DNA from: an uncultured virus (IMG/VR IMGVR_UViG_3300017998_000010)
Lineage: Duplodnaviria > Heunggongvirae > Uroviricota > Caudoviricetes
DNA length: 64,000 nucleotides
IMG/VR virus record: IMGVR_UViG_3300017998_000010
Coordinates: 1 to 64,000 of that record
Strand: one strand, 5' to 3'
The number at the start of each line of letters is the position of its first letter. Within the stretch, counting starts at the first letter, position 1. Below, in pieces: positions 31,327 through 47,703 of the stretch. The translations under genes were made by a program, and so were the position numbers. The notes under the pieces are model-generated. The model was given only the letters and a program-made list of their open reading frames with translations. It was not told where the DNA came from and made no database searches.

Positions 31327-32421
31327 CTATTTTTCTTTTGGTTTGACTAAATAATTTAACATCTGCACCGTGTCCATCGTATCGGTATCTACATCCAGTT
31401 CTCTACACGCCTTTTTAACAAAATTGTCTGGAATCCCACTTCCCAGAAATTGGCGTATTATGGCAGACGCAGAGTTTATGTCTATGCGGTTTCTCTTGGT
31501 CTTTCTGAGCATAGTAGTATGTTCTTTCAATGTGGCAACTATATCAGAAAGCTGTGTCTTTTTCATTTGGGCTTCCCTTCTCTTCTCATTGGCGATCTCA
31601 GCCATCTCTGTCAGGAAGAATTTCTTTTTCCTCTCATATAAAGCTCTTATTGTTTGACATAATGGTGTATTTAGTTCTTCCCATCTGTTTCTAAGTTTCC
31701 ATTGTGGCTGTGCTACACCAGAGTATGGGCATTTTAAACACGAAGAGTGTTCACAGTATTCCGCACCCGGAAGTGTCATTTTCTCATCCTTGCTGATTGT
31801 TCGGGGATAAGGCTTCGTAGAAAAAGGTCCGGTTTGATATGAATACACTCTAGCTCTACCTCTTTTCATTAGATGTATTTTATGTGTTATGACCCACGAT
31901 CTTGCTATAACATCTAGAGTTGCCTCTGACAAACAGACTATGAAGATTATGAATCCCTTTGAACGAATAGCCTCAAGTTGCTTCATCAAGTCCTTCTGAA
32001 TGTCTGCATACCAGTCCCGGCTAGAGATCGCAAATTGACTTTCATCGACCACTATTACCCTGCCAATACCCAAAGGACTATCTGGACCAATCAGTTCCAT
32101 GAATTCATCTGGACCAAATGGAACTTGAACGTCTACATCGAACTTAGGGTCTAAAATTTCTGCAAGTCTCAGAGTGAAATAGGTTTTCCCTTTTCCACCA
32201 CCGCCTGTTACGACAACAATACAAGCCTCAATATTATCCCTTTTTTCCTGTAGCTCATCGAGCAAGAAAGTGCCATAACCCGAACCAAACTCAGCCCTGA
32301 CCCCATGCCAATTTGTCCAACGATTTGCACCCTTGTACCCCTTTGGTGGATCAACGAATTCATCACCACCAACTTTTCTTATTGTGGTTCTTTTAAAAAT
32401 TCTTTTAGATTTTGTACTCAT
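31327..32421 (-). CDS. P-loop ATPase, probably FtsK/HerA-like genome packaging/extrusion type
   Basis: Walker A VVTGGGGKGKT, Walker B VIVVDESQ, RSKG arginine-finger position; Cys cluster CEHSSCLKC. Confidence 0.75.
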   Translation of the reverse strand: MSTKSKRIFKRTTIRKVGGDEFVDPPKGYKGANRWTNWHGVRAEFGSGYGTFLLDELQEKRDNIEACIVVVTGGGGKGKTYFTLRLAEILDPKFDVDVQVPFGPDEFMELIGPDSPLGIGRVIVVDESQFAISSRDWYADIQKDLMKQLEAIRSKGFIIFIVCLSEATLDVIARSWVITHKIHLMKRGRARVYSYQTGPFSTKPYPRTISKDEKMTLPGAEYCEHSSCLKCPYSGVAQPQWKLRNRWEELNTPLCQTIRALYERKKKFFLTEMAEIANEKRREAQMKKTQLSDIVATLKEHTTMLRKTKRNRIDINSASAIIRQFLGSGIPDNFVKKACRELDVDTDTMDTVQMLNYLVKPKEK

Positions 32422-32423
32422 GT

Positions 32424-33425
32424 TTATTCATCTATGTTTTTCATTGTTAATTTTTTCTTTTTTATTGGTTTTGACATAATTGCTTCTGGTTGTGTATTTG
32501 TAGTTGGTATCTCTTCACTAACTAATATAATATTTCCTATCTCCGTTTCTTTTAATTTCTGTTGTGTCTCGTTATCAAACTTTTCTTTATCTATTTTTTG
32601 TTTTAATTTTTTATCTTTTCTTTCTTCTAATATTACTTTATATTCTGCAAATTCCTTATCTTCCTCTTTCTCTAATTCCTTGGTTACCTCATCAATGGTT
32701 TCCTCATATACTTCGTGTTTTATAGGTTCTAGTGACGTTTTTGGTTCATTCATATCCTTATCCTCATCATCATTAATGTCCTCATTTTCATCATCAGATT
32801 CTGGTTCCATTATTGGTTCTGGTGGTGTGGGTTCTAGTGATGCTGATTCTTTATCCACAATTATACCTTCCTTCACACCCTCAATACCTCTTTCAACCAA
32901 TACTCTAACAAAACTTCCATTCTTGAGTCTTAACAGTGGTATTGGTGGTGGGTCGATCTTCTTTTCCACATTACCTCTCGGTTCGATTTTCCAAGTCACG
33001 CCAACATCCTGTAGTTCATTGAGTATTATCTTGTATAATTTCTGGTAGTCTGTCTGTTCGACTTCCTCAACCATCGGAGAAATTCTGATAGGTTCTCCAC
33101 CGTCATAGTTCCAATCTGTTGGTTTGTTACGGAAAATCGGATTTTCCAAAGTTCCCATTGGTTTGCCACAGGAATATTTATATACAGGCTGTTCAACTTT
33201 AGCTGTGTATTGTTCTCTAGTCTTGTCATTTTCTATCCTAAGTCTGTTCTCCTTTGGTAACATTGCCAAGAGAGATTCAACAGCATTTGAGAACTTTATC
33301 TCATCTCCCTCTAGTGCGGCATTATTGCAACGGTCTATCTGTTTCAGTACAAGATACTCAACATTGACTTTCTGTTTAAATTCTGCATCAACAGGTGTTT
33401 CTTCAAAGTCTCTACTATATGCCAT
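32424..33425 (-). CDS. Acidic hypothetical protein co-transcribed with the ATPase
   Basis: 333-aa ORF, E/D-rich C-terminal half, 2 nt from the ATPase start. Confidence 0.7.
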   Translation of the reverse strand: MAYSRDFEETPVDAEFKQKVNVEYLVLKQIDRCNNAALEGDEIKFSNAVESLLAMLPKENRLRIENDKTREQYTAKVEQPVYKYSCGKPMGTLENPIFRNKPTDWNYDGGEPIRISPMVEEVEQTDYQKLYKIILNELQDVGVTWKIEPRGNVEKKIDPPPIPLLRLKNGSFVRVLVERGIEGVKEGIIVDKESASLEPTPPEPIMEPESDDENEDINDDEDKDMNEPKTSLEPIKHEVYEETIDEVTKELEKEEDKEFAEYKVILEERKDKKLKQKIDKEKFDNETQQKLKETEIGNIILVSEEIPTTNTQPEAIMSKPIKKKKLTMKNIDE

Positions 33426-33427
33426 TT

Positions 33428-33583
33428 TTAAACACCATTTTTCCTTTTCTCTTGTAGTAAAAGAATAGCTTCTCTAAAAACATCGTTTGGCGATTCTCTT
33501 GGATTTCTTTTGAGACTATTCATTATGCACCAAACATCATTGGTAATACAAACAGTAGTTGGATCATCATTCTTCTTAGTCAT
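33428..33583 (-). CDS. 51-aa RHH-type regulator (not in ORF track)
   Basis: PTTVCITNDVWCIMNSLKRNPRESPNDVFREAI; first gene of the ATPase operon. Confidence 0.65.
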   Translation of the reverse strand: MTKKNDDPTTVCITNDVWCIMNSLKRNPRESPNDVFREAILLLQEKRKNGV

Positions 33584-33682
33584 ATATGTATATAGGCATA
33601 TAGGCATATTTATATGTTACGAATAGATAAATAGTAGTAGTAATGTTTATAAATGTCTACACTCTAATATATATAGATTAAT

Positions 33683-34210
33683 TTGAGTTCTGACGATGAA
33701 TGGAAAGAGGATGAGGAATGGACTCTTTCACAAAAAATAATAAAAAAGGTAAAGTCTATTCTATTTCCACCTAGAAAGCCAAGAGAGCAAAGAGGAAAAA
33801 GGATAAAGAGGAAAAATAGAAATTTTGATGATGTAGTAATAGATATTTCATCTGTGAAACAACCAGTAGAACAAGTAGTGAAACAACCAGTAGTAGAAAC
33901 AAAAGTAGAACCAAAACCAGAACCCGAATTAAAGTCAGAAAAATCAAGGAAACCAAAACAGGAAGAAAAATGGGATGAAGATAAGCCACAGAAAGCAAGG
34001 TTTATTCCAAACTTAGATAGAACTTTTCCCGGTCCTATGGTTGTCAAGAGGCTTATAGCAACGGTTCTTTTGCTCTGCTTTACAGGTCTTTTGATATTCG
34101 TACTTAGAGACTCACCGATACCAGCAATTATTTGTTTCCTGACAATGATCATATTCATTGATTATCTGATTATAACTGGACCGCAAAAAACGGAGAAATG
34201 GGCTGATTAA
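33683..34210 (+). CDS. Membrane protein with two C-terminal TM helices
   Basis: Charged linker followed by two hydrophobic helices. Confidence 0.7.
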   Translation: MSSDDEWKEDEEWTLSQKIIKKVKSILFPPRKPREQRGKRIKRKNRNFDDVVIDISSVKQPVEQVVKQPVVETKVEPKPEPELKSEKSRKPKQEEKWDEDKPQKARFIPNLDRTFPGPMVVKRLIATVLLLCFTGLLIFVLRDSPIPAIICFLTMIIFIDYLIITGPQKTEKWAD

Positions 34211-34211
34211 A

Positions 34212-34382
34212 ATGTCTATATGTTGTTTAGAATGTGGATGCTATAAAGATTGTCATCCAGAACCAGAACACAAACGTGGTGTTAAAATAAAGTATAATGA
34301 TCCTGTACACGAAGCATGGAGAATATCATCAAGAGATAGTTATATGAAACGGAAAGCAAAGAATGTAGGAGTTGAAAAGTAA
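34212..34382 (+). CDS. 56-aa Cys-rich protein (not in ORF track)
   Basis: MSICCLECGCYKDCH...; fills the gap exactly. Confidence 0.55.
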   Translation: MSICCLECGCYKDCHPEPEHKRGVKIKYNDPVHEAWRISSRDSYMKRKAKNVGVEK

Positions 34383-35056
34383 TGTCTGTAGTAGATATGT
34401 TGTTCTCTCCATATGGAGTGATGGGATTATTAGTTGTCTTGGGTGGTCTTGGTGTATATTACTATTACACTAATATCATGTCAAAAGGTGGTAGTGGAAC
34501 CAAAAAGACACTAGTTCTAATCAGACCCGGAGAAAAGAGAGCCTTAGAGATTCCTATTTTGAAGGAAACAGCACACTGGCTATACTGTAAGACAATCGAA
34601 GATGTCCCACGTAAATTCTATAAAGTTGCACCCGGATATGTTTTCCCAAACGTAACCAAGTTCTTTGCTATTGAGGGAGTTGGATATACAGCAGACATTA
34701 GAACACCCGAAAATACAGCACCCGAACCCACAACAATCGACAGGGCATTACGCATACTTTGGGGAGATGACAAATATGAAAGGATGCCAAAATCCAATAG
34801 GAAGTTGGTTGAGGACACCCGATGGGGTCTTACAATCGCAATCGAAGCGTATGAAGGGGAAGATATGCCAAATATTTCCTCTGAGGCACTTAGAGAGAAG
34901 GATGACGAAGCAATCCTGAAGATATTGGCTGAAGATGCTATGGATCAGCAGAAAAAGAGTAAGTTCGATTTCCAGCAGATTCTTATTGGTGTTGGTATTG
35001 GTGCTTTGGCAGTATATATCATGGTCAATCAAGGTTGGTTGAGAGTAGCACATTAA
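34382..35056 (+). CDS. Membrane protein with N- and C-terminal TM helices, putative morphogenesis protein
   Basis: Hydrophobic termini; lies opposite the ATPase operon. Confidence 0.65.
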   Translation: MSVVDMLFSPYGVMGLLVVLGGLGVYYYYTNIMSKGGSGTKKTLVLIRPGEKRALEIPILKETAHWLYCKTIEDVPRKFYKVAPGYVFPNVTKFFAIEGVGYTADIRTPENTAPEPTTIDRALRILWGDDKYERMPKSNRKLVEDTRWGLTIAIEAYEGEDMPNISSEALREKDDEAILKILAEDAMDQQKKSKFDFQQILIGVGIGALAVYIMVNQGWLRVAH

Positions 35057-35070
35057 AGAGGTAATGTAAA

Positions 35071-35439
35071 ATGGCAGAACAAGAAAGTTTATCACCACAG
35101 TTGGGTACAGACCCAATCGACCTAGAAATGGGTCGTGTAGATATGAGAAGGCTAACTGTCCTGAAACACAACAAGATGGGGGCTGTTCTTTATGCGGCTG
35201 TCAGGGCTAAGAATTCTCCAAGTTGGGCAACTGTCTTGGATTGGTACTTAAACCTAAATGTTGGTTTCGGTGGTCGTGGTAGGCGTGACATCATCCGTAT
35301 GGAACAGGTTTCTCGTGGTGGTTCGGTTAACGTTGAGTCTGAGATTGAAGCCGCAAAACCAACAAGTTGGACACAACGTAATATAACTAAGAGAGATTGG
35401 AAACAGGAAGCTATGGAAGAACTGGGTGAAGAGGTTTAA
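35071..35439 (+). CDS. Hypothetical protein, putative morphogenesis
   Basis: GAGGT SD; LNVGFGGRGRRD motif; operon position. Confidence 0.55.
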   Translation: MAEQESLSPQLGTDPIDLEMGRVDMRRLTVLKHNKMGAVLYAAVRAKNSPSWATVLDWYLNLNVGFGGRGRRDIIRMEQVSRGGSVNVESEIEAAKPTSWTQRNITKRDWKQEAMEELGEEV

Positions 35440-35465
35440 GTAAACTTAATTTATACTAGATAATT

Positions 35466-36360
35466 ATGATTAGAATATTGGTATACAGTAATCCAAAAGC
35501 GAAAGGAAGAAAATATGGTTTAACCTCATTATTAAGTAATATTCCAAATTTGAGTTTCAATTTTGTAGGTACTGGTATTAAAGAAAATATTAAGAATTTG
35601 TTAAGTGCAGATATTGTTCAAATTATGTCTGCTAAACTTAATGGTATAGAGGGCATGTTTTGGATTTTTTTATTTGTATTTTTTAAGATTATTGGTAAAA
35701 AAATATTGTTTTATTGGATTGGATCAGATGTCATGGATTCGGATAAAAAAATAGTGTTAATTTGTTCTAAATTAATAGATAAAAATCTTGTTCATGCACC
35801 TTTGGTTAGTAAATGAATTAAAAGAAAAGGGGGTTGTGGCTGAGTTTGCTCCCATACCATCATGGAATATTAGGGCAAAGAAGATAGGTCCATTACCAGA
35901 AACACCAACAGCACTTGTATATTTTGGAAATAGAGAATATTTTTATGGTCTTGAGATAGTGAGAAGGTTAGTTTCAATGCCATATAAATTTATTATTCTT
36001 GGCAAGAGGGATGTGTTGAAAGCACCAAATATTGAATATTTAGGTCATGTTAATGTTGAGGACATGGATGAAATATATTCTCGAACAACTGTTCTTCTCA
36101 GAATAACCAAACATGATGCTTTATCAAAAATGGTTCAAGAGGCATTGGCTAGAGGAAGATATGTGATCTGGTCATACAAATTTCCAAATTGTTTATATGC
36201 CACCGATTATGACATGGTGTATAAACATATGAGAGAGCTAGAAAATGTAAAACAACTTAATACATCTGGTATATCATTTATAAATAATTATATGAATATG
36301 AACAAATGTGTGAAAATATTTACTAATGTCTACAATCAAACTATATTAGAAAAAAAGTAA
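35466..36360 (+). pseudogene. GT-B (GT4-like) glycosyltransferase split by a single extra base
   Basis: YWIGSDV in part 1; removing one T in cctttgg (35799-35805) joins NLVHAP to WLVNELKEKG; part 2 has HDALSKMVQEALARG. Confidence 0.7.
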
Positions 36361-36362
36361 TT

Positions 36363-36530
36363 TCATTTCCACCCAAGATATTTTGCTATTATTTTTAATG
36401 CAATATATCCAAAGACACCAGTACCAAACGTGTAAAAGAGGGAGTCAAGCCCACCGTTGAAACCAGAAGCTATTGAAATAAAAATTAGACCAATGAAGTA
36501 AAGTGTGTCAATGCTCATTCCCTTTGCCAT
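36363..36530 (-). CDS. 55-aa two-TM membrane protein (not in ORF track)
   Basis: MAKGMSIDTLYFIGLIFISIASGFNGGLDSLFYTFGTGVFGYIALKIIAKYLGWK. Confidence 0.6.
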   Translation of the reverse strand: MAKGMSIDTLYFIGLIFISIASGFNGGLDSLFYTFGTGVFGYIALKIIAKYLGWK

Positions 36531-36569
36531 TATAATCAAAGATATAAGTGTGAGGTGAGTATAAAAAGA

Positions 36570-36728
36570 TTATGCTTTTGGTTTTTTAAATTTATCAGAA
36601 ATGTCTGGATAAAATTTCCTATTAAAATCTTCCAAATTTTCTGGGTGCTTCTTTTTTACATGTTTTCTAACGGCTTCCATACTCAATGATGGATTGCCAC
36701 AGTATGGGCAAATATAATCCGTTAGCAT
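36570..36728 (-). CDS. C2H2 Zn-finger protein (not in ORF track)
   Basis: YICPYCG...VRKHVKKKHPENLEDF. Confidence 0.75.
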   Translation of the reverse strand: MLTDYICPYCGNPSLSMEAVRKHVKKKHPENLEDFNRKFYPDISDKFKKPKA

Positions 36729-36785
36729 GATATTCACTACCATATGTGCCTATTACCAACATATATATCTTTCTATGAGTATCTT

Positions 36786-36804
36786 ATCATAACATTTATA
36801 TAAG
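36786..36804 (+). promoter_or_regulatory. BRE-TATA promoter (class B)
   Basis: atcataacatttatataag before 36849. Confidence 0.75.
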
Positions 36805-36848
36805 AACGAACAGAACATTATGATAGAGTAGTCTGAGGTGTCTGAAAA

Positions 36849-37154
36849 ATGAGAAAATCTCCAATTGAACACACGGTTCACAGATATAAGCGTCAAACAG
36901 GCACTGTGGTAAATGATTATCTTAGAGGTAGTGGAGAGGCAAAAGTAGTAGTAAAAACACCCAAGCTATCAGGAAAAGTCCTAGGGAAAAAAGTAAATGG
37001 TACAGATAAAGGTGGATTCAACATGCTTATAAAATATGCAGATGATAATACTAAAGAGGTTATTTTAAAGGAGAAAACTTATTTGACAGCACTACCAGTT
37101 GGTATAGGATATGCTGATAGGCAAATCAGACGTATTACTCTACGTAAGGTATAA
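36849..37154 (+). CDS. Basic protein sharing its N-terminal motif with 25687 and a C-terminal segment with the 1160-aa protein
   Basis: SPIEHTVHRYKRQTGTVVNDYLRGS. Confidence 0.7.
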   Translation: MRKSPIEHTVHRYKRQTGTVVNDYLRGSGEAKVVVKTPKLSGKVLGKKVNGTDKGGFNMLIKYADDNTKEVILKEKTYLTALPVGIGYADRQIRRITLRKV

Positions 37155-37183
37155 CCTTAGACTACGGAGGTGAAAAAGTAAAA

Positions 37184-37327
37184 ATGGTAAAGAATAAGGC
37201 AACGGCTACAAGTAAGCCAAAGTTGGTCACGGTTGTTACACCGATTGGTTATCTAACAACAACACCAGAGATAGCAAAGAAGATAATTGCGTCACAAAAG
37301 AAGAACGCAATGAAAGTAAAGAAGTAA
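37184..37327 (+). CDS. 47-aa basic protein (not in ORF track)
   Basis: GGAGGTGA SD; MVKNKATATSKPKLV... Confidence 0.6.
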   Translation: MVKNKATATSKPKLVTVVTPIGYLTTTPEIAKKIIASQKKNAMKVKK

Positions 37328-37423
37328 TTAAAAATGCGTATATATGATATATGTGTAGTAGGTATTACACCGATCCTAGATCATATATATCATATTTCTA
37401 AATTTGGTGGTAGTGACTAATAT

Positions 37424-40400
37424 ATGTCAGAAGAATATCAACAATCAGAGCAACAAGCACAAGCATTACGTACACAAGAATTGAATAGATCACAAGCATT
37501 AATTCAACAAAATGTTATAGAACAAACTAGAATACAACCAAAACCAGTAATAGTATCGACACCAATACAAGCCCAAAAAGCAACTATCGTACCATCAAAT
37601 TATGTTGATGCAATAAATAGGGTAAATGTACACAACACATCAATAACATCAATAAAACCAGTAATATCTTCAACACCAGTAAAAGTAATACCACCAGTAT
37701 CATCAATAATGGCAAAGATAGACAATTCACAGAATATGATTGAACAAAGTAGATTAAAACTAACATCAAATCCTTTAGCACTTGCTATAGGAGATAGCCC
37801 ACAAGCCGCCCCAACAGAATTTGGTAGAAGTGATCCAAAAATTAGGGCTGGATTAGAAACAACTCTTCTTAAAGTTAATACGGCTGAGTATGATAAAAAT
37901 GTAGCATCATATACAACTTTTATTAAAGATGGAAATGATGCACTAGCACAATATAATGATATAGTAAAACTACATAAATGGGATGAATATGATTTTTCTT
38001 CATATAAATCTACCAAAAATGGAACGGGTAAACAAGCATATATTAAAGATATGAATGATTTAAAAATGGCACTTTCAACAGCACCAACAGACTTAGATAC
38101 ATATAAGAAAAACTTTGATACTTATACCAAGTCGAAAACACAACTTATATCATCACTTCAAACAGCATCTATAGCAAAGACTTCTTGGACACTTAATTAC
38201 ACGGATAATGGGGTTAAAAAAACACAAATATTTAATAATTATGATGATATGCAAAAGTTTATAGTAGATATTAATACAAAAGCCGCAAGCACATTGATTT
38301 TAAGTCCAGCAGAGGGTTCTACTATACAGAAGTTTGATACAAGTGCAAAGAGTTCTACAGCAAATAAAATAGACGCAACAGAGATGCAATTTAAGACACC
38401 TGATGAATTACATAGATATATTGAAGGTTTATCTGAGACACAAATTAAAGCGAATGTAGATGTTCTCAGCAATAAATTATGGCAACTTGCATCACAAGCA
38501 CCTGAGTATGCACAATCAAATGATTTAAAAGTTGCGTTGGATATGCTTTATCCGGCATTTTCGGCAATAAAAGGTCAAAATGGTGAGTACAATCCCAAGG
38601 GAGTTTTACAGGCAGAGGCTATAATTGCAGAAGCTACAGAAAAACAACTGTCACCATTCTTAAATTTACTACCAAGAAAGGCAGATGGATCAAACTATTT
38701 ATTCCAAGTTCTTCCTGAACAGGAAACCTTTACATATAAAGATTTAGAGGATAGAGGGCTTACACCAGACAAGGTAATTGTTGGCAAGGCAATGGGATAT
38801 GCTACAGAGGGTGCAGAAATATACTTCACATCTATGGTTGAAGGTGCTGTTCTTGGTTTTGCTTATGGTGCGGCAGGTAAACTTGTAGCTAAAATTCCCG
38901 CAATTGGTGGTTTGGCTGAAAGGGGTGGTATGGCATTAACAACAGCAACAGGGGCAAGTTTACCATCAAGTATTCTTTCTACAATAAAAGCAGGTTTAAC
39001 AAAACTAGGTATTATTGATGAGGCTACACAATTAGTGACTGATGAAGAGGGAAAAGTTATACCTCTTACGGTTGAAAGTATTACAACTAAAGCACCAACA
39101 CTTACAGGTCAACTTAAAAATGCTATAACAATTGGTATGGACAAACTATCACTTGGTGTTACTGAGATGGATACATTAAATCAATTAGCGGCAATTACAC
39201 AAATGCCACTGGTTACTATAGCAGGAACGGCTGGTCTTGCCGCATATGAATATGATAGACTTGAAAAAGTGCTACAGACAAAAGGGGCAGAAGATTGGTT
39301 GGGTCAATTTGCTGTAGATTCTTCTGCTTTCCTTGGTGGTATAAAAGGTTTCCAAGTAGGATTCTCATATAGTGATACACCTTTTAACTATATTCAAATG
39401 AAGCTAACAAAAGGACAACCACTAAGTGCATATGAAGTTGCAGAGGCAAATGTTATAGAGGGCAGGGCTAAGTATCCGGGCTTTGAAGAACAACGAATGA
39501 AAGCAACACCAGAAAACTTCAAGATGCTAAGTGTGAACTATACACCACCTGAACTGGAACAGGAGGGGAAAGTTATTGTATATTCAGGAACCCAAGACCC
39601 ACAATTAGTTGCAAGTCTAGCAAAAGTCGGTGTTACAGGTGGAGATGCACCATTACTTTGGGCATCACATAGTTGGAGTACTGCATTTTCTGGTATAGGA
39701 CAAGCAGAAGAGGTAGCTTTGCCAAGTGCTTTTGTCAACCCATTTGCTAAGGCAAGCGTAATCTCAATTGGAATTGATGATGTTACCAATGAAGATTTTA
39801 TAAGTAAGATGGATCGTAAAGACTTAGGAAAACTTTATCAGGATATACTGGATAGATCAGGACAGTATGTCGGTGTTATGCCCTCAGAACAGGGGATGGA
39901 ATCACAAATAATCATTGGACCGGGGCAGAAATTCATAAAAGTTGGTGATCAGTTGTGGGTCAATATAAACGGTAGAATTGTCCCACTACAGATGATGCAA
40001 CCAATTGGTAATGCAGGTACTGTTACAGAAGATGCAATTAGCAAAATTGTGAATCTTGATTCGGGTTCTTCTAGTATTAAGGCAAACACAATGTATATAC
40101 CAACACTCAATGCTGTTTTATCAACCGATTATAGCATCTCAGCAACCACAGGCTCTATAAAATTATCAACGTCACAAATAAATGATTTATCTACTATTAT
40201 TTCAAGTGGGAAACTATCAGCCACACAGTTAGATTCTGCGATTAATGCTTTATCTGCACCTACAATAGAGAAACTTGTTGATATTTCTAGTCCAGAGCAA
40301 GTTTCTAAGATATATAATTCTGTACCAGAGTCTGTGAAGAGTAATCTATCTGAAAGAATTAGTTCAAAAATAGCATCTTCTATTAAATCTGTGCAATCAG

Positions 40401-40906
40401 AAGATAGTATAAGTTCTATAGAATCTGCATCAGAAAAGGTAAGTTCAAATCAGGTAGAGAAATATATAAGTTCAGTAGAATCAGCAAAATCACCATCAGA
40501 TATAAGCTCAATATCTGAGGTAAGTAATATTTCTGAGCAAAGTAAAATTTCATCTGTGTCAGAAACATCAGAACCAAGTGAACTTTCATCTATATCTGAA
40601 TTATCAGAACCAAGTGAACCCTCACCATCATCTCAGTCATATGAAGAAAAAGAATATCCATCTTTGAAACTTCCCGCACCAGCAAAGCCAACAGATAAAG
40701 ACTATGCGGATAAGCCATCAAAAAGCATATCAAAGTTTAAAGTGACATATACATTCATGGATAACGAAAATGAAAAAGAAGTTTCTGCACGTACATTTAG
40801 AGAAGCACTCGGAAATACATGGAACAAGAGAGGATCATTAGAGATACCAAAACAGGTTAGTATAGTAAAAATGCCAAATGTGAAGAGTACGAATGTATTA
40901 TTTTAG
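37424..40906 (+). CDS. 1160-aa putative virion protein
   Basis: No signal peptide; central G/A-rich hydrophobic helices; Ser/Glu-rich low-complexity C-terminal tract. Confidence 0.6.
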   Translation: MSEEYQQSEQQAQALRTQELNRSQALIQQNVIEQTRIQPKPVIVSTPIQAQKATIVPSNYVDAINRVNVHNTSITSIKPVISSTPVKVIPPVSSIMAKIDNSQNMIEQSRLKLTSNPLALAIGDSPQAAPTEFGRSDPKIRAGLETTLLKVNTAEYDKNVASYTTFIKDGNDALAQYNDIVKLHKWDEYDFSSYKSTKNGTGKQAYIKDMNDLKMALSTAPTDLDTYKKNFDTYTKSKTQLISSLQTASIAKTSWTLNYTDNGVKKTQIFNNYDDMQKFIVDINTKAASTLILSPAEGSTIQKFDTSAKSSTANKIDATEMQFKTPDELHRYIEGLSETQIKANVDVLSNKLWQLASQAPEYAQSNDLKVALDMLYPAFSAIKGQNGEYNPKGVLQAEAIIAEATEKQLSPFLNLLPRKADGSNYLFQVLPEQETFTYKDLEDRGLTPDKVIVGKAMGYATEGAEIYFTSMVEGAVLGFAYGAAGKLVAKIPAIGGLAERGGMALTTATGASLPSSILSTIKAGLTKLGIIDEATQLVTDEEGKVIPLTVESITTKAPTLTGQLKNAITIGMDKLSLGVTEMDTLNQLAAITQMPLVTIAGTAGLAAYEYDRLEKVLQTKGAEDWLGQFAVDSSAFLGGIKGFQVGFSYSDTPFNYIQMKLTKGQPLSAYEVAEANVIEGRAKYPGFEEQRMKATPENFKMLSVNYTPPELEQEGKVIVYSGTQDPQLVASLAKVGVTGGDAPLLWASHSWSTAFSGIGQAEEVALPSAFVNPFAKASVISIGIDDVTNEDFISKMDRKDLGKLYQDILDRSGQYVGVMPSEQGMESQIIIGPGQKFIKVGDQLWVNINGRIVPLQMMQPIGNAGTVTEDAISKIVNLDSGSSSIKANTMYIPTLNAVLSTDYSISATTGSIKLSTSQINDLSTIISSGKLSATQLDSAINALSAPTIEKLVDISSPEQVSKIYNSVPESVKSNLSERISSKIASSIKSVQSEDSISSIESASEKVSSNQVEKYISSVESAKSPSDISSISEVSNISEQSKISSVSETSEPSELSSISELSEPSEPSPSSQSYEEKEYPSLKLPAPAKPTDKDYADKPSKSISKFKVTYTFMDNENEKEVSARTFREALGNTWNKRGSLEIPKQVSIVKMPNVKSTNVLF

Positions 40907-41142
40907 AATTTATAATAATACTTATATATAAAATGATTATTTAACTATCTAATTAGTGATTAATAAATAAAAACGGTTCTTTTCTATATAAAATAGATTA
41001 TGAAACTGTTTAAAAATTATTCATATTATATTTGATAAAATGCATTTAAATCTACAGAGTTTACGAATGAATTATACTTATTTAGGTAATTAAAAACCAC
41101 AAACTTTAAATAGTTATGATGCACATCTTTATATGATACAAA

Positions 41143-41493
41143 ATGTTTGAAAGCCTGAAACAGAAAATGAAAGCGAGAGAGATCAATCAAAAAGAGAAAT
41201 CAAAAGAGAGAGCAATTAGGCAAAAAGAAAAAGAAGACAAAGAAAATGAAAAGTATCTAAAAACGCATTGGGAGAGAATAGGAACTTATGGTATGCCAAA
41301 TTCATATCCAGATGAAATACCAAAATGGTTATTGGAAAAGAATAAATCGGGTGGAACAGGAATTTTTAAGGGTAAAACTTTTGTTTACAAGGTTGGTTAT
41401 AATGGTGGTAAAAAACAGGGAGATGGATATTATATATACTATAGAAAGCTACGTTCAGATGTAAAATACGATCCTTCCAAACACAAAGAATAA
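41143..41493 (+). CDS. Basic hypothetical protein
   Basis: Own promoter accacaaactttaaatag (about 41096); FKGKTF...GYYIYYRK resembles part of the repeated basic domain. Confidence 0.6.
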   Translation: MFESLKQKMKAREINQKEKSKERAIRQKEKEDKENEKYLKTHWERIGTYGMPNSYPDEIPKWLLEKNKSGGTGIFKGKTFVYKVGYNGGKKQGDGYYIYYRKLRSDVKYDPSKHKE

Positions 41494-41530
41494 ATCCACA
41501 AACCTTATATAATAGTTTTATATCTATTAA

Positions 41531-42385
41531 TTGATTGAAATGGAATGGTTACTTTCTGATGTTGATGAAATGCCACAACAACATCTCTCAGAAGCAACAA
41601 AAATAAAAATAAGTAAGACCAAGAAAAGTATGGGTAGGACAGGTGAGAAAGCACCTAATTATGGTAAACATCTCACACCAGAAACCAAAGTGAAAATTGG
41701 TAGTGCCAATTCAGGTAAACATTACTCTAAAGAGACAAATATGAAAAAAGGTCATAAAGGTGAAAGTAACCCTATGTTTGGTAGGATAGGTGAAAAATGC
41801 CCTGCGTTTGGTAGAACTGGTGATAAAAATCCAATGTTTGGCAAACACCACTCGGAAGCAACAAGAATAAAAATCGGAAACGCACAAAAAGGCAAGATAG
41901 GTGTGTTATGTCCTAATTATGGTAAACATCCATCAGAGGCAACAAAAATAAAATTAAGTGTGGCAAATAAGGGTAGACCTTCTCCTATGAAGGGAAAACA
42001 CCAATCAGAGGCATCAAGAGAAAAAATGAGAGAAAAAGCACCATTAAAAGAAAAACATAATAGAGGTGGAAAAACATCTCATTTGGTTACGATATCACTC
42101 ATTAGTAATCAATTGGAGAGATTAGGGTGGGCAGTACAGAGTTGGACTACAACGGGAGAGAGATTTGTTAGAATAGATAAATATAATTATGTACCCGACA
42201 TCTATGCCAAGAAGGGTAATGATATCATTCTAGTTGAGGTTGGGGATTGTTCTACACAGAAACTATGCAATCTTATGATCAAATATCCAATAGTGTTGCA
42301 AGTCCCAAAAATGAAAATGGAACTAAAACCTATTGATATTAGAGACTTAGTTAATTGGCATAAATTTTATCGTTGGATGGTGTGA
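41531..42385 (+). CDS. NUMOD3-repeat plus PD-(D/E)XK-like nuclease (paralogue of 29352)
   Basis: NPMFGKHHSE repeats; YVPDIYA...LVEVG. Confidence 0.8.
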   Translation: MIEMEWLLSDVDEMPQQHLSEATKIKISKTKKSMGRTGEKAPNYGKHLTPETKVKIGSANSGKHYSKETNMKKGHKGESNPMFGRIGEKCPAFGRTGDKNPMFGKHHSEATRIKIGNAQKGKIGVLCPNYGKHPSEATKIKLSVANKGRPSPMKGKHQSEASREKMREKAPLKEKHNRGGKTSHLVTISLISNQLERLGWAVQSWTTTGERFVRIDKYNYVPDIYAKKGNDIILVEVGDCSTQKLCNLMIKYPIVLQVPKMKMELKPIDIRDLVNWHKFYRWMV

Positions 42386-42632
42386 TTATCTTATATAAAA
42401 CTAGTAAATAGTAGAAATATATTTATCTAGATATTATAATAACATTTATATGTAAACAATATTACTTATTATTGATGGTTTTTTCATAAAAATATTTTTA
42501 ATATAATCTATATATGTCTTTTTAAAATGTTGTGAAAAAGCTATGATATAGGTGGTATTTTGAATGTTGTTTTTTATACTAACATTTATATATATTTAGT
42601 GTAAATAATATACAGATCATACCGTTAAACCT

Positions 42633-45600
42633 GTGGTAGATAATATGAAGTTTAAATCTTTAGTTGTGTTACTCATTTTCATTATGAGTGCATTTATTAT
42701 GCCACAACAGATTGCACACTCTACCCCATCAATCACAACAACATCACCAACGGCTTTTGGATATAACTTCCAAAGACACACTTTTAATGCTTCAGGTCTG
42801 ACTTGGTACTTCTATTCAGATGGCATAGACATGAAATGGACATCCACACCAGACTATATCACATTTAACACAATTTATACTGCTGTGACAGGTGTTGCTT
42901 CTGGTAATCTATTTTCTGTGTTTTCTAATGGTCCGTATGTTGCTTATGTACGTGTGACCACCGCAGGTGTATTATACTATCGTTATGGAATAACACAAAC
43001 GAATGGTAGTATTGTTTGGTTAATCTCTGAGACAAAAATAAAAACAAATAATTACTATGTAACAGCACCATCAGTTTGCATAGATACTGCTGGATATTTA
43101 TGGATTGGTTATTGTAACTCAAACGGTGTTATAGGTGGAAATGCTACATATACAGCCGCATATGTTATGAGAAGTGACCGTGACAATGGCACAGTTGGAT
43201 ACCCTATGCCAATAGAACTTGAGAGATCACTTGCTTTTGTACAATATGGTGTTTGCCCAACACCAACAGTTGATGGTCATGTCATCGTTGCTTATGGGAG
43301 CGATTCTACACCACTAAAAACTAAGTCTTTTAACTCTGCATATGGTTTAGATGGAGAACCACTTGGTTCAATTCTTGAACAGGGTATAAAGACACTTTCA
43401 AGTATTGTTTTTGATAGTGGATATAGTTCTCAGTCAGAAAATTGTTTGATCCAGTTGAATAGCATAAGTACCTTTACAGCATCAGCCACCATGTATTCTA
43501 CTGGTAGTGGACCTGTTTATGGAACATTTATAATTTATTATTCTGATGGTACAACTCTCACAATACAAGTGCCACTTAATGGTGATGTTTTAGGTGCTAT
43601 TTACAAATATAATGCGGAACATGGTATTTCAAATGCAAAAGTGATAACCAAGATCACTTATAATGATGCTACCATGTGGGAAAACTTTAGTTCAGACTTA
43701 GAATATTATGTTGATGGTATAGCATCACATGATAGATATGGTGGGGATGATTACTATGGTGGTGTTGGCACACTAAATTATATAAAAACTCTACCTGCAA
43801 TATTTGTTTGGCACTCGTATGTTAATAGCTGGTATTATACCACAGACCCAATAACAGGAAGAGATATTATATATTACAATTTTACATCACCGCTAAGTTC
43901 AACAGAACTAAATAATATTGGTATTACATATCAAACAGACCCATCTCATACATTACAACTCAACTGTACGGTTGTATATGGTGATCACACATCAACCAAA
44001 ACTATTATAAATGTTGCTAAAGATAAGCAATTAACATCACCAGTATCCTTTGTTGGTGGGAAGTCTGTCACAAGTTTTGTGGTAAGTACAAGTTCTTATG
44101 GTTTTCTTGATTCTGGTTATGAAATTCAGAATGTCTTATTTAATTCTACCAACACGGAAAATTCACTTAATAATGCAGTTAGTGATGGAACGTACCTTTA
44201 TGAATCACTATATCAAAGTCCATTAGTCATTAAAAAACTAACCGTAGATGGTCTTTTCCCCGTTGATGTTTGGCAATATAATTCAACACTTCCCGCAAAT
44301 AATACACTGGTATATGATGCTGGTTTCTTATATATTGGCTGTGAAGGATACGGAAACTTAGTAATAACTAAAGTAAATGCGGTAACAATGAAAACAGCAC
44401 AATCATACAAAGCAGACCCAAGTTATAATCTTGATTATGCTCTTGGCTTGTGTTCAGATGGCACATATTTGTATGCATTAGCAAGAAATATGGCAACTAA
44501 TCATCTTGTTGTAGTGAAAATTCTCGAATCTACTATGACATATGATTCCAAGGATGTGACAAGCTATATTTATGTAGGTACAAACACGATTATGTATGAT
44601 GCCGCAGATGGTAATGTCTATATAAGTATGTCACAAGCATCAAATTGTGCGGCTATACAGATGAATACTACAACATTATCCACCACAGGCACATGGAGTG
44701 GTGCAGGTTATGGTGCGAATGTTTATAGTAGTTCGGCATATGGTAGTTTCATATACATTGGTGTAGATTCAAAGATCGTAAAGATAAATATAACACCATT
44801 TATGTTAACCGTAGCTAATTGGTCTGTTCTTCCTAGTTATCATGCAAATCCAACATCCATAGTAAATGATGGTACATATCTATATACTGTATATAATTAT
44901 ACAACACCAGTATTGACAAAAATAGACATAAATACTATGAGTACAATATCATATCTACTTCCATCAGTGGGTGGTAAGAGTGCCAAACTTATCTTTACAA
45001 CAGGTATATTTGATGTTTGTTTTGATAGTGATAGTAGTGCAACTTCAATTAGCAATTATATGTTGTGTTTAAGAACATCTGTATTTAATACTGTTTCTCA
45101 AACCTCATATTCTCTGAAATCATTCTCATCATTCAGTTGTGTCAATAAAGATAATGATGTTTTTATTGCTTATACAACATCGACAAACAAAATAGATTCA
45201 GATTTTTATAGTGGTGAAATGGGGGCTATCACAGCAGAAACAATTCTATATACTTCCTTGGGTACAGCACCATCACCAACAATCTCAAGAAATAGCTATG
45301 AGGATATCTCTGTTATTTGGATGAATGATCCAGTAACGGACAAAATATATTACAATATATATAGAAATTCAACATCTTCATGGAGTGGTGTTACAGTAGG
45401 TATTACTAGTTCTGGTATAACAACAGGAACACCGATAATATCTGTTTATCAATCTTTCTCACCAACAGGTGTAGGTTGGATGACAGGTGCTGGACCACCA
45501 TACACAATTGTAGTAAATGGTCTTTTGACAGGTGATGAACCAACACTAAATTATCTGGTAGTACCAGACTTGAGTGCTGGAATTTCAACGTTCAGGAATA

Positions 45601-46895
45601 TTTATAGCATGGATAAGTATTACACTTTTGTAGCATCTACAACCACAGTAAATTCACCCAATGATGTCACGGATATATATATTACAGCTATGAAAGGGGC
45701 ACAGATTTATTTCAAGGTTCATGGTGCAAGCCTAAATACTGTTCCTGTTTGGTCAATAATTTCCAACTCAACAATAATAAATCTTGACACTGCACACTGT
45801 GTCTGGGCTAAATCAGGCACACTTGGAACGGCAACATTCAAGATTGAAACAAAATGGAATTTCCCAACTACGGCTGATTTAGACTTATATCTTGAGGCTG
45901 TGAATGGTGCTGGTTCTTCAGGCATAATTAAAATGCAAACAGCCTATTGTGATGTTATATCCGATTTAGTTGCAACCATAACGACAACAACACCACAGGT
46001 CTTTCTAGGTGTTCAGATAGCCATAACAGGTGGTGTTTTTTATGAAATTTCTCCTGCAAACATTAATCTGTATACAGTTATGGTTTCACCACCAGATGCA
46101 CAATTTACTAGAGTGGAGGTTTGGAATAAGACTTTAGTTGCCCAAGACCCTGCTATCGTAAATGGTACATATCAGGTTGTTTTCACTCCTTACTTAGCCA
46201 CTGGCAATCAGACATATCATCTTAAACTGTTTATGTTATTACCATTTGTTGCTGGTCCTTCGGCAAACAACGCCACATTAACAGTCTATGTTACTGCAAA
46301 CTTTGTTCCAAGCCTAAGCCCACTTACCATATTACTTCAGCCAGTATTCAACCTTTTTGGTATTGGTGGCGGTGTAGTGGCTATTTGGGCTATGATAACA
46401 TCTATTGGTATATGGTTCGTGGCGTCAATAACTATGATGGTGTCATTTGTTACAACGTTGGGAACGATGTTCTTTAACTTCGCAGTGTTCCTATTTACTT
46501 GGATTTCAATAATGGGAAGTTTTATAATTGCACTTGTTACTATAATGATAAATCTTTTGAATGGTACTAGTACAGCTATAACCTATGGCGGTAATGTTGT
46601 AGGTAGTATCAGTTTTGGTTTAGGAAACATTTGGAACCTCTTTGGTGGTACTAATTTGATAATCTTTATGCCATTTGTTATCTTCATTGTTTGGATACAA
46701 AGCCTAGATTCTCGGCAGGAGACAATGGGTATAGGTTTACTTTCACTTGCACTTAATGACTTCCAAACATTGTACGGACTCATAAACGTGTTGACAGGTT
46801 TCGCTATGTTTATATACTCCGTTGTGTCCGACTGGATCAGATGGATATTTGGTTACTTATCGGGTTTCTTCACACGCCTCTTTTCAAGTATATAG
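42633..46895 (+). CDS. 1420-aa exported beta-rich glycoprotein with C-terminal multi-TM anchor; putative adhesin/receptor-binding spike
   Basis: Signal peptide, repeated DGTYLY propeller-like units, many N-x-S/T sequons, several C-terminal TM helices. Confidence 0.75.
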   Translation: MVDNMKFKSLVVLLIFIMSAFIMPQQIAHSTPSITTTSPTAFGYNFQRHTFNASGLTWYFYSDGIDMKWTSTPDYITFNTIYTAVTGVASGNLFSVFSNGPYVAYVRVTTAGVLYYRYGITQTNGSIVWLISETKIKTNNYYVTAPSVCIDTAGYLWIGYCNSNGVIGGNATYTAAYVMRSDRDNGTVGYPMPIELERSLAFVQYGVCPTPTVDGHVIVAYGSDSTPLKTKSFNSAYGLDGEPLGSILEQGIKTLSSIVFDSGYSSQSENCLIQLNSISTFTASATMYSTGSGPVYGTFIIYYSDGTTLTIQVPLNGDVLGAIYKYNAEHGISNAKVITKITYNDATMWENFSSDLEYYVDGIASHDRYGGDDYYGGVGTLNYIKTLPAIFVWHSYVNSWYYTTDPITGRDIIYYNFTSPLSSTELNNIGITYQTDPSHTLQLNCTVVYGDHTSTKTIINVAKDKQLTSPVSFVGGKSVTSFVVSTSSYGFLDSGYEIQNVLFNSTNTENSLNNAVSDGTYLYESLYQSPLVIKKLTVDGLFPVDVWQYNSTLPANNTLVYDAGFLYIGCEGYGNLVITKVNAVTMKTAQSYKADPSYNLDYALGLCSDGTYLYALARNMATNHLVVVKILESTMTYDSKDVTSYIYVGTNTIMYDAADGNVYISMSQASNCAAIQMNTTTLSTTGTWSGAGYGANVYSSSAYGSFIYIGVDSKIVKINITPFMLTVANWSVLPSYHANPTSIVNDGTYLYTVYNYTTPVLTKIDINTMSTISYLLPSVGGKSAKLIFTTGIFDVCFDSDSSATSISNYMLCLRTSVFNTVSQTSYSLKSFSSFSCVNKDNDVFIAYTTSTNKIDSDFYSGEMGAITAETILYTSLGTAPSPTISRNSYEDISVIWMNDPVTDKIYYNIYRNSTSSWSGVTVGITSSGITTGTPIISVYQSFSPTGVGWMTGAGPPYTIVVNGLLTGDEPTLNYLVVPDLSAGISTFRNIYSMDKYYTFVASTTTVNSPNDVTDIYITAMKGAQIYFKVHGASLNTVPVWSIISNSTIINLDTAHCVWAKSGTLGTATFKIETKWNFPTTADLDLYLEAVNGAGSSGIIKMQTAYCDVISDLVATITTTTPQVFLGVQIAITGGVFYEISPANINLYTVMVSPPDAQFTRVEVWNKTLVAQDPAIVNGTYQVVFTPYLATGNQTYHLKLFMLLPFVAGPSANNATLTVYVTANFVPSLSPLTILLQPVFNLFGIGGGVVAIWAMITSIGIWFVASITMMVSFVTTLGTMFFNFAVFLFTWISIMGSFIIALVTIMINLLNGTSTAITYGGNVVGSISFGLGNIWNLFGGTNLIIFMPFVIFIVWIQSLDSRQETMGIGLLSLALNDFQTLYGLINVLTGFAMFIYSVVSDWIRWIFGYLSGFFTRLFSSI

Positions 46896-46986: not shown

Positions 46987-47703
46987 TTAAAGTAGCCTGT
47001 TAAATAAATTCCATTTATATAGTGTGGACATTTCATTCTTAGAGAATTGAAATTCTAACTCCATTTTCAGCTTTGACACATGTAATACCACAGGATAATG
47101 GGACATTAAGTGGCATAGTTTTTGTGTTGTGCAACTTCCAACCTCAACCAAAATTGGATTATTATTATCCTTTGTAGCATAAATATCAGGTGAGTATTTG
47201 TGTTTATCTATCGTGATAAATCTCTCTCCTGTTGTACACCAACTTTCAACTTTCCATCCCAGACTCTCTAATCGACTACTAATGAGTGCTATAGTAACTA
47301 GGTGGGATGTACCTCCACCTTTGGTGTGATGAACACGTAGTTGGTGTGCTACACTTATTTTTACTCTTTCCTCTTGCGTGTGATGTCTGCCATAATTAGG
47401 GCATAACCCACCAGTTTTACCAAACATAGGACTTTTTTCACCTCTATTAGCATCACCAATTAGTTTTTTTGTTTCCTTTGTGTGATGTTTGCCAAACATA
47501 GAGGTTTTCTCACCAGTTAAATGTATACCAAACGCAGGGCATTTTTCACCTGTCACACCAAACATGGGGTTATTCTCACCTTTATTAATCTCACTTAATA
47601 GCTTTTTTGTTGTGTCTGAGAGATGCTTACCTTTCTTAGCCTCACTCTGTAGTTTTCTTGTTACATCTGATGGGTGTTCTCCTTTCTTTGGCATTTCAAT
47701 CAA
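46987..47703 (-). CDS. NUMOD3-repeat plus PD-(D/E)XK-like nuclease (paralogue)
   Basis: MFGKHHTKE repeats; YSPDIYA...LVEVG. Confidence 0.8.
   Translation of the reverse strand: MIEMPKKGEHPSDVTRKLQSEAKKGKHLSDTTKKLLSEINKGENNPMFGVTGEKCPAFGIHLTGEKTSMFGKHHTKETKKLIGDANRGEKSPMFGKTGGLCPNYGRHHTQEERVKISVAHQLRVHHTKGGGTSHLVTIALISSRLESLGWKVESWCTTGERFITIDKHKYSPDIYATKDNNNPILVEVGSCTTQKLCHLMSHYPVVLHVSKLKMELEFQFSKNEMSTLYKWNLFNRLL

Follow-up and report, generated by a model that had tools for sequence, protein, structure and literature searches.

Introduction

The genomes of non-tailed archaeal viruses, spindle-shaped ones included, are regarded as limited to a modest size. Two of them, His1 (Halspiviridae, Salterprovirus), which infects Haloarcula and whose linear 14.5-kb genome ends in inverted terminal repeats and encodes a protein-primed type B polymerase, and LSV-48N (unclassified; PP151251), which infects the halophile Haloferax and has a 24.9-kb circular genome, carry the closest named relatives of an ATPase encoded in the DNA analyzed here. 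This DNA is a stretch of 64,000 nucleotides, hereafter the window (IMG/VR record IMGVR_UViG_3300017998_000010, positions 1 to 64,000), with a focus on positions 31,327 to 46,895, which an earlier reading of the letters, referred to below as the original prediction, had taken for the morphogenesis module of an unusually large non-tailed archaeal virus. Our results suggest that 30.4 to 46.9 kb is probably the assembly and integration module of an uncultured archaeal virus lineage, kin to His1 and LSV-48N through its ATPase, inside a large element. New here is a His1/LSV-48N-type assembly module in what appears to be a much larger genome.

LSV-48N is described, in the accessible part of its report, as forming lemon-shaped particles and as a temperate virus that is chronically shed and exists as circle and provirus (PMC12714723). 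The largest spindle-type genomes fetched for comparison, 63 to 75 kb, are those of the Bicaudaviridae (ATV; STSV1), which also encode giant proteins and infect hyperthermophilic Sulfolobales; the accessible part of a cited study argues that the spindle coat evolved for packing more DNA. Among the viruses of Bathyarchaeia (Fuxiviridae, Kunpengviridae, Chiyouviridae and Huangdiviridae), Huangdivirus is a spindle-type provirus whose ATPase has the ATV ATPase as its best match and Fuxivirus has a genome of 32 kb, and archaeal tailed viruses have a median of 54.3 kb, as stated in the accessible text of PMC10541130. A bacterial element, IME1 of Dehalococcoides, combines a pI-like ATPase with small hydrophobic proteins in double-stranded DNA of more than 20 kb, and IME1 elements have been proposed to bud or extrude (10.64898/2026.09.15.751708, accessible part). 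The accessible literature on Bathyarchaeia spindle viruses, archaeal Zot ATPases, LSV-48N and Halspiviridae (supplements aside), PMC12451623 and PMC13573593 included, describes neither the lineage reported here nor a spindle-type virus of this size.

A recurring gene block around a P-loop ATPase

The open reading frames (ORFs) confirm the arrangement on which the original prediction was built: a minus-strand ATPase operon (31327-32421 and 32424-33425) divergent from plus-strand genes for membrane proteins (33683-34210 and 34382-35056) and for proteins of 1160 and 1420 amino acids (aa). The operon runs from a 333-aa protein through the 364-aa ATPase to a 236-aa recombinase. Pfam was searched with every chosen window ORF of at least 60 aa and with all flanks, and PHROGs with 41 ORFs of 28.7 to 64 kb and the 24 window ORFs of at least 120 aa from 1 to 28.7 kb. 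The genes in and beside the block are as follows.

30389-31099, minus strand: tyrosine recombinase of 236 aa, conserved just downstream of the ATPase, with weak Phage_integrase and XerA matches
31327-32421, minus strand: Zot/pI-like Walker A/B P-loop ATPase of 364 aa, the marker gene of the family, with four conserved cysteines and a helical C-terminal domain
32424-33425, minus strand: 333-aa protein with a conserved N-terminal domain of about 200 aa and an acidic low-complexity tail (alignment A2; no Pfam or PHROG match)
33428-33607, minus strand: small ORF of 59 aa, like a ribbon-helix-helix (RHH) protein by eye, with tblastn matches in L014, L015, L016 and L028 and none in Pfam
33683-34210, plus strand: 175-aa protein with a charged N-terminal half and a C-terminal two-helix hairpin, a candidate coat-protein precursor
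34212-34382, plus strand: cysteine-rich small protein of 56 aa, conserved in L014, L016 and L039, with no Pfam match
34382-35056, plus strand: conserved membrane protein of 224 aa, with a transmembrane helix at either end and a small beta-barrel and helices between them
35071-35439, plus strand: conserved soluble protein of 122 aa with a GGRGRRD motif (alignment A3; no family match)

The ORFs of 32 related loci, comprising 30 metagenome loci and two contigs of metagenome-assembled genomes (MAGs), were compared with the window ORFs by blastp. The ATPase was matched in 31 loci, the N-terminal 200 or so aa of the 333-aa protein in 23, the 224-aa protein in 11, the 122-aa protein in 9 and the recombinase in 7; matches to the 175-aa hairpin protein (3 loci) and to the C-terminal third of the 1420-aa protein (2 loci) were rarer. 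Because many of the loci span just 1.5 to 5 kb, these counts are floors. In distant relatives the 224-aa type, the 122-aa type, the 200-aa domain, the ATPase and the recombinase are colinear on one strand (e.g., L022, 1485-5024), suggesting that the divergent arrangement of the window is a local inversion. In the distant relatives L031 and L033 to L038, a single ORF of 382 to 546 aa matches both the 333-aa domain and the ATPase, representing a natural fusion. Because the block recurs in related loci, these data indicate a five-gene module of viral type that goes beyond a chance association.

The catalytic residues of the recombinase, R (TGSRSNEL), HxxR (HELR) and Y (DHY), are readable in the translation of 30389-31099. 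Its match to Pfam Phage_integrase has an E value of 3.5e-4, and that of the L022 homologue reaches 7.8e-6 over nearly the whole catalytic domain. The homologues are short (207 to 255 aa; 314 aa in L012), lack the N-terminal core-binding domain and follow the ATPase in seven loci.

The ATPase is related to those of His1 and LSV-48N

A search of 5.8 billion proteins gave 52 relatives of the ATPase, and none carries a functional name. Of 18 aligned relatives, 13 reach Pfam Zot (best E, 6e-7) and 15 reach AAA_22, and the family profile matches PDB entry 2r2a, the N-terminal domain of Neisseria Zot, at 3e-5. An AlphaFold model, with a predicted local distance difference test score of 79, likewise gave 2r2a as its top PDB match in Foldseek (2.5e-5). 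A P-loop domain that matches the Zot profile and structure, by which membership of PF05707 is judged, was thus found in the family. In the BFVD structures, the top three Foldseek matches are unnamed and are followed by ATV ORF286 (2.6e-6) and, at rank 10, by Inoviridae Zot (9e-5). The unnamed top matches (A0A7L4XRS4, A0A0N9NKD7, G3CAX5, Q684C2, A0A1C9EG51 and A5Y2D3) may include STSV1 or ATSV proteins, but the first 50 kb of the STSV1 record hold no ORF of 280 aa that would correspond to Q684C2. By tblastn, the relative in L025 matched an inovirus "phage assembly protein" and "zonular occludens toxin" at 2e-3 to 3e-3. C-terminal to the P-loop domain, the alignment and the model place a beta region, a cysteine loop with the four conserved cysteines, and helices; there is no pI-type C-terminal membrane part, and the sole hydrophobic window (residues 155 to 173) lies inside the P-loop domain.

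LSV-48N gave the best match to a named virus. Its homologue was the only record found by tblastn at an E value of 0.01 or below (6e-4), aligned with the ATPase family by hhalign at 97.9% (E, 4e-13; 103 columns) and matched relatives of the window family by blastp down to 6e-16. Alignment A1 of the ATPase family also matched His1 ORF16 (92%; E, 6.6e-7; 143 columns) and, weakly, ATV ORF286 (35%; E, 4e-4), and it did not match VP8 of the pleolipovirus HRPV-1 (4.3%; E, 0.009). These comparisons indicate homology of the ATPase to its counterparts in His1 and LSV-48N, viruses that have been imaged as spindle or lemon shaped. The original prediction had invoked the gene pattern of spindle-shaped and pleomorphic viruses together; its spindle half is supported by the ATPase, whereas its pleomorphic half is not. 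The profile comparison that it called for, of the ATPase and transmembrane proteins with archaeal viruses, linked the ATPase to LSV-48N and His1 but the 224-aa protein and the coat candidates to none.

Comparison of the gene plan with described systems

The gene plan matches those of His1, LSV-48N and a complete relative described below (G005) in that an ATPase operon is divergent from genes for small hydrophobic and giant membrane-anchored proteins and a glycosyltransferase. In His1, the operon ORF20-19-18-17-16, ending in the ATPase, is divergent from the gene for the two-helix coat protein VP21, from ORF26 and ORF27, which combine a signal with an anchor, and from the glycosyltransferase ORF31. 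His1 has a small linear genome with terminal repeats and a type B polymerase, a family that was not found in the 112 kb read here; the element has a tyrosine recombinase. In LSV-48N, the order is two small genes, the ATPase, one further gene and a 206-aa integrase, and this operon is divergent from a block that encodes giant proteins of 824 and 904 aa. LSV-48N also shares a Dam-type DNA methyltransferase with the window (blastp, 3.9e-10). The giant and other virion proteins of LSV-48N had no similarity to window proteins by blastp or hhalign, for which single-sequence templates limit sensitivity, and the element is at least four times larger than the LSV-48N circle.

More remote systems resemble the element in single respects. 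ATV ORF286, which lies in the large structural-type gene block of ATV, is among the top named structural matches of the ATPase, but the hosts of ATV and STSV1 are hyperthermophiles and the sequence links are marginal. The pI/Zot proteins of Inoviridae (PF05707; 2r2a) share the P-loop domain; unlike the ATPase, with its four cysteines and helical domain, pI has a transmembrane C-terminal half, and the Inoviridae have small single-stranded genomes rather than double-stranded DNA of 41 to more than 100 kb. The Bathyarchaeia viruses are similar in the host class of the integrated relatives of the family. Huangdivirus, which is likened here by description and not by sequence, was assigned in the accessible text through homologues of fusellovirus VP1 to VP3, which were not found here. 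IME1, also similar by its accessible description, differs in being bacterial and about 20 kb in size.

The complete relative G005 (IMG/VR; also L051) is 40,904 bp long, with 127-bp direct terminal repeats, a CheckV completeness of 100% and a G+C content of 51%. Its ATPase is 46% identical to that of the window, and a TnpB/Cas12f-like gene (405-1523) interrupts its operon between the gene for the 200-aa domain and the ATPase gene. The divergent minus-strand block of about 17 kb encodes at least eight hydrophobic proteins of 68 to 232 aa, with one to six predicted helices, as well as proteins of 401, 654, 1053 and 1881 aa, of which the 654-aa one is 28.5% identical to the C-terminal part of the window 1420-aa protein over 424 aa (2e-39). 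G005 also encodes a D5-type primase-helicase, an HNH nuclease and a DUF5131 protein; this primase-helicase and the direct rather than inverted terminal repeats set it apart from His1. By blastp, G005 ORFs match window ORFs only in the module, an epimerase and the 1420-aa protein.

Candidate coat and surface proteins

The 175-aa family is the best coat-protein candidate. Its hydrophobic segments span residues 115 to 133 and 135 to 153, relatives occur in L014, L016 and L028, and L020 and L022 hold analogues of the same build, in which the hairpin ends in a conserved D/H-Y motif. This build recalls the processed VP1 precursor of SSV1. The remaining candidates for particle components are as follows.

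36363-36539, minus strand: hydrophobic ORF of 58 aa with one or two hydrophobic segments, the weak coat candidate of the original prediction
37424-40906, plus strand: 1160-aa protein from a family of 567- to 1225-aa proteins, a candidate virion component
42633-46895, plus strand: 1420-aa putative surface protein with a signal-like N-terminus, an outer part that is variable and rich in sequons, and a conserved C-terminal membrane domain of several helices (from hydrophobicity and sequons)

The 1160-aa protein has 21 relatives at an E value of 0.001 or below among 1.84 billion representatives, and mainly residues 572 to 1150 are conserved. It matched nothing in Pfam, PHROGs, NCBIfam, a PDB sequence search or LSV-48N, and Pfam was uninformative on the 21 relatives.

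The 1420-aa protein consists of an N-terminal hydrophobic segment, an outer part of about 1200 aa and about five C-terminal hydrophobic helices at residues 1231 to 1398. Only its C-terminal third (989 to 1410) is conserved in L023 and L033, and just two matches were found among 5.8 billion proteins. Searches of Pfam, PHROGs, NCBIfam and PDB sequences returned nothing, and the Atlas gave no usable match. The protein carries 21 N-x-S/T sequons, or 1.48 per 100 aa, compared with 0.63 in the other window ORFs of at least 100 aa. The "C-terminally anchored glycoprotein" of the original prediction therefore keeps its C-terminal membrane domain but not a single anchor, as several helices and an N-terminal signal-like segment are present, and its status as a glycoprotein would rest on sequon density. 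We regard it as a candidate virion-anchored protein for host recognition.

Extent and content of the element

About 112 kb were read, made up of 20.0 kb upstream, the 64.0-kb window and 28.2 kb downstream, by means of IMG/VR contigs that share the same DNA. The identical ATPase is present on metagenome contigs of 193,754 and 162,755 bp, and a further contig of 128,705 bp holds the 1420-aa protein. All 24 listed peat and wetland runs (2017 to 2021), none of them an RNA run, contain 95 to 100% of the sampled words, and 21 of them may be sources of this DNA. Contigs of four runs are near-identical over 28.5 to 48.4 kb, one run having a single 47.6-kb contig that spans the stretch; no joint, excised or module-skipping form was seen in these contigs, which hide rare forms. 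The window is AT-rich, with a G+C content of 30 to 44% per 2-kb bin (mostly 32 to 37%), its ORFs are mostly on the plus strand, and no tRNA genes were found in it. Its tandem repeats are only collagen or low-complexity coding repeats, for which reason a Borg-like element with pervasive tandem repeats was dropped from consideration.

The upstream 20 kb (L046, L043) contain about 56 further small ORFs, mostly on the plus strand, of which a NADAR domain, a protein of DNA-repair-exonuclease type (PHROG) and a few marginal Pfam matches are all that is recognizable. In the downstream 28.2 kb (L009, L042, L045), a glycan cluster continues to about +74 kb and is followed by an archaeal S-adenosylmethionine (SAM) synthetase and then by replication and nucleotide genes with ORFans. 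Three features of this larger region are as follows.

27161-27400, plus strand: gene for ribosomal protein eS30 among ORFans (Pfam S30, 2e-10; NCBIfam S30e, 8e-13, below its cutoff)
48463-64000 (plus strand) and L009 1-10000: glycan-synthesis cluster of about 26 kb, extending 10 kb past the window (Pfam, PHROGs)
L042 3191-8015 and L045 4616-5107, about 76 to 88 kb past the window start: two clamp loaders, a PD-(D/E)XK exonuclease, a DUF6011 protein, a weak primase-like protein of 504 aa and a dCMP deaminase

The glycan cluster encodes membrane proteins, a GHMP kinase, a SIS protein, a phosphatase, a transaldolase, several GT2 glycosyltransferases, epimerases, an aminotransferase, a radical SAM protein, methyltransferases, a diacylglycerol kinase and an oligosaccharyltransferase of AglB/STT3 type (61053-62624). 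The two clamp-loader subunits are of phage type (PHROG, 3e-46 and 1e-30). Taken together, the L042 and L045 genes look like the replication and nucleotide module of a large virus.

In L013, whose ATPase is 80% identical to that of the window, an eS30 copy (62% identical) occupies the same place, suggesting that the lineage of the element keeps eS30. The L013 recombinase is followed by the same eS30 block, which indicates that the module and the left ORFan arm travel together in these two diverged relatives. There, about 0.9 kb separates the recombinase gene from the eS30 block, and the Dam methylase and NUMOD3 genes that the window has at 28743-30320 are missing; they are therefore probably a later insertion.

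In agreement with the original prediction, Pfam and PHROGs found no head, tail, portal or terminase family in the 64 kb. Across the 112 kb, the observations that it had named as contrary to it were both sought: no terminase, portal or HK97 capsid protein was found by Pfam or, in window and flank ORFs of at least 120 aa with L009 unscanned, by PHROGs, and no host housekeeping run or synteny was present. A type B polymerase family was also lacking in the 112 kb scanned, and no conjugation genes were seen in the window or G005 scans. An unusually large size thus fits contiguous mobile-element-like DNA of about 112 kb that is free of head-tail genes and host housekeeping runs and lies on contigs of up to 194 kb.

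These observations suggest, as the most likely explanation, that the module belongs to one very large non-tailed virus or provirus within at least about 112 kb of DNA of mobile-element type. Tentatively, and with rather less than an even chance in our estimation, all of it may be one spindle-type genome of at least about 112 kb, possibly the full 163 to 194 kb, with its own N-glycosylation pathway (AglB/STT3), clamp loaders, nucleotide enzymes and eS30.

Other features of the window

16303-17160 and 17262-18140, minus strand: collagen-repeat proteins of 285 and 292 aa with a hydrophobic helix at each end
19619-20986, plus strand: 455-aa fusion of a ParB-like N-terminal domain with a radical SAM/DUF5131 domain, next to a DNA methylase (22952-23686)
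28743-29231, minus strand: Dam-type DNA methyltransferase (Pfam Dam, 5e-28)
29352-30320, minus strand: NUMOD3 homing-endonuclease-like gene (Pfam NUMOD3, 3e-35; PHROG homing endonuclease)
35466-36360, plus strand: split glycosyltransferase (GT1/GT4-like), overlapping ORFs of 116 and 190 aa in different frames, with weak Glyco_trans_1_2 and Glyco_trans_1_4 matches on the second ORF
36570-36743, minus strand: C2H2 zinc-finger protein of 57 aa (zf-Di19, 4.6e-5; zf-C2H2_4, 1e-3; both below curated cutoffs)
36790-37154, plus strand: promoter-like box TAACATTTATATA (from box counts) and a basic 101-aa protein (36849-37154)
41531-42385, plus strand: NUMOD3 homing-endonuclease-like gene between the giant genes (Pfam NUMOD3, 2e-20; PHROG homing endonuclease)
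46987-47703, minus strand: third NUMOD3 homing-endonuclease-like gene (Pfam NUMOD3, 5e-21)

The PHROGs "tail fibre" matches of the collagen-repeat proteins are due to the collagen repeats only. The three NUMOD3 genes are paralogous, and two have a common C-terminal domain; along with the split glycosyltransferase and the recombinase, they had been omitted from the original prediction. The split glycosyltransferase may reflect a frameshift, a programmed shift or a decayed gene. As for the "several C2H2 and RHH regulators" predicted originally, one C2H2 protein with sub-cutoff Pfam matches stands, whereas the RHH-like ORFs, including a further small one at 48197-48334, match nothing in Pfam.

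The box TAACATTTATATA occurs six times in the window, against 0.78 copies expected, a count reached in none of 100 shuffles; it also precedes the 1420-aa gene, at 42580. At window positions 36784-36802 and 41487-41512, contigs of the same runs share just promoter-like stretches of 18 to 26 bases and then diverge from the window, suggesting that the box is repeated elsewhere in the same or a co-occurring genome. IMG/VR record G002 is identical except that it lacks an 8.9-kb stretch (1286-10200, about 30 small ORFs); the breakpoint falls in a shared ATAAAATGCCAA at the starts of two genes, and three other IMG/VR contigs break at about 10.2 to 10.4 kb.

Alternative explanations

Several observations weigh against a single large non-tailed virus with a His1/LSV-48N-type module. 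The 112 kb are part of contigs of 163 to 194 kb, so that at least 80 kb of the 194-kb contig and the contig ends lie beyond the stretch seen, and relatives with known ends or contig sizes measure only 28 to 41 kb. IMG/VR labels the region "provirus" and trims it to 51 to 59 kb; CheckV rates a 59-kb excerpt as 33% complete. Only the ATPase appears to link the module to named viruses, since the 224-aa, 122-aa and 333-aa families and the recombinase have no similarity to LSV-48N, His1, ATV or HRPV-1 proteins. For example, the 224-aa protein and His1 ORF20 were paired by Foldseek at rank 49 (E, 1.1), which was not counted as similarity, the 224-aa family did not match ATV ORF277, and alignment A2 gave 1.2% by hhalign with HRPV-1 ORF7. 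The window ATPase itself reaches no Pfam family, Zot included, and in LSV-48N the homologue carries the annotation of a DnaA-like replication initiator. A coat protein was not identified in the window: neither the 175-aa nor the 58-aa hairpin candidate aligns with His1 VP21, as short hydrophobic proteins rarely do, and no counterpart of the 58-aa ORF turned up in the fetched loci or in Pfam. Finally, the PHROGs search outside 28.7 to 64 kb covered just ORFs of at least 120 aa and left out L009 and 12 to 40.9 kb of G005.

The small size of the relatives is in keeping with a composite, in which a His1/LSV-48N-like provirus of 20 to 40 kb, carrying the module, is nested in or adjoins a second mobile element or a variable island of the chromosome, so that the size is not that of one virus. 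The "provirus" call with its differing trims fits such an arrangement, as does the position of the recombinase beside the ATPase, a pair that in L008 borders restriction-modification and host genes, and the glycan cluster, SAM synthetase and clamp loaders may be part of some other entity. However, the only repeats recovered in a search of 27 to 49 kb for flanking att-type direct repeats were those of NUMOD3 and the promoter-like box, neither G+C nor strand bias shifts along the window, and the four runs gave no module-skipping joint, rare forms of which would be hidden. The recombinase gene of L013 stays beside the left-arm eS30 block, and the 112 kb lack a host housekeeping run. We consider the composite unlikely.

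Still less probable is an element that is not a virus but a large plasmid-like or integrative element, with the ATPase serving replication initiation or DNA transfer and the giants being host cell-surface proteins. The DnaA-like annotation in LSV-48N is compatible with this, the fold of the ATPase model resembles VirB4, RecA and RFC at similar Z scores, the coat protein was not found, and accessory genes (glycan synthesis, methylases, eS30) are many. Against it, particles have been imaged for both His1 and LSV-48N, the two viruses that are the closest named carriers of the ATPase (PMC12714723, accessible part; His1 record), and the profile matches point to a Zot/pI assembly ATPase. Furthermore, in G005 the ATPase operon lies beside the 17-kb block of hydrophobic and giant membrane proteins and replication has a separate D5-type primase-helicase, and conjugation genes were not seen.

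A head-tailed giant archaeal virus of the Caudoviricetes, with capsid, portal and terminase too divergent or on unseen contig parts and the module accessory or captured, is very improbable: large tailed viruses typically have a genome of such size, clamp loaders, nucleotide enzymes, homing endonucleases and collagen-like fibre proteins, at least 80 kb of the longest contig lie outside the stretch seen, and Atlas neighbour clusters of the 224-aa protein are mostly labelled Uroviricota, albeit automatically, but the terminase, portal and HK97 families are absent from the 112 kb, few ORFs are big enough (besides annotated enzymes, only unknowns of 269 to 504 aa by the clamp loaders), and the complete 40.9-kb G005 has the module while the rest of its match to the window is confined to the epimerase and 1420-aa proteins (its 12 to 40.9 kb being outside the family-library scan).

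Bathyarchaeota relatives and host

Both genome-collection matches are Bathyarchaeota (TACK) MAG contigs, L007 and L008, the two relatives among 80 pattern matches. In L007 (9376-12320), host metabolic genes flank a tiny island made up solely of the 200-aa domain gene, the ATPase, a 113-aa ORF and an Mrr-type nuclease, which may be either a remnant left by decay or an ATPase pair that has been domesticated. In L008, a restriction-modification system adjoins the ATPase and recombinase, and host genes come next. Neither of the two Bathyarchaeota MAGs, both incomplete, yielded the 1420-aa protein or a member of the 224-aa family. Of the TACK or Asgard hosts proposed originally, TACK is thus represented by relatives, and nothing points to Asgard. 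The Bathyarchaeota relatives do not fix the host of the element itself, because the G+C content of the element, 33 to 37%, is far below the 45 to 53% of the Bathyarchaeota host stretches and the 51% of G005.

Implications for non-tailed archaeal viruses

For the preferred reading, a single very large non-tailed virus or provirus, we propose that the ATPase and its three conserved partners would act at the cell membrane, on the model of pI and of the chronically shed LSV-48N. The ATPase may drive the loading of DNA into a coat of small hydrophobic hairpin proteins, with 33683-34210 as the best candidate, and particles would leave the cell without lysis. The 1420-aa protein would be held in the particle by its multi-helix C-terminal domain and would recognize the host through an exposed outer part that evolves fast and is probably glycosylated. 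A further particle component may be the 1160-aa protein, and the recombinase would integrate the genome into the host.

If true, a single genome would be about two to three times larger than the largest spindle-type genomes fetched, and the size limit of non-tailed viruses would be stretched by a lineage with a complete member of 41 kb and a relative surrounded by over 100 kb of virus-like DNA. A virus-borne AglB and a glycan cluster of about 26 kb would mean that the glycan coat of the virus itself or of its host is remodelled. The lineage would extend the known virome associated with Bathyarchaeia, and the conserved five-gene marker block would help to find such viruses in anoxic soils and sediments. 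An ATPase common to His1, LSV-48N, possibly ATV, and the pI of filamentous phages would make testable the idea that archaeal and bacterial budding DNA viruses share assembly by membrane extrusion.

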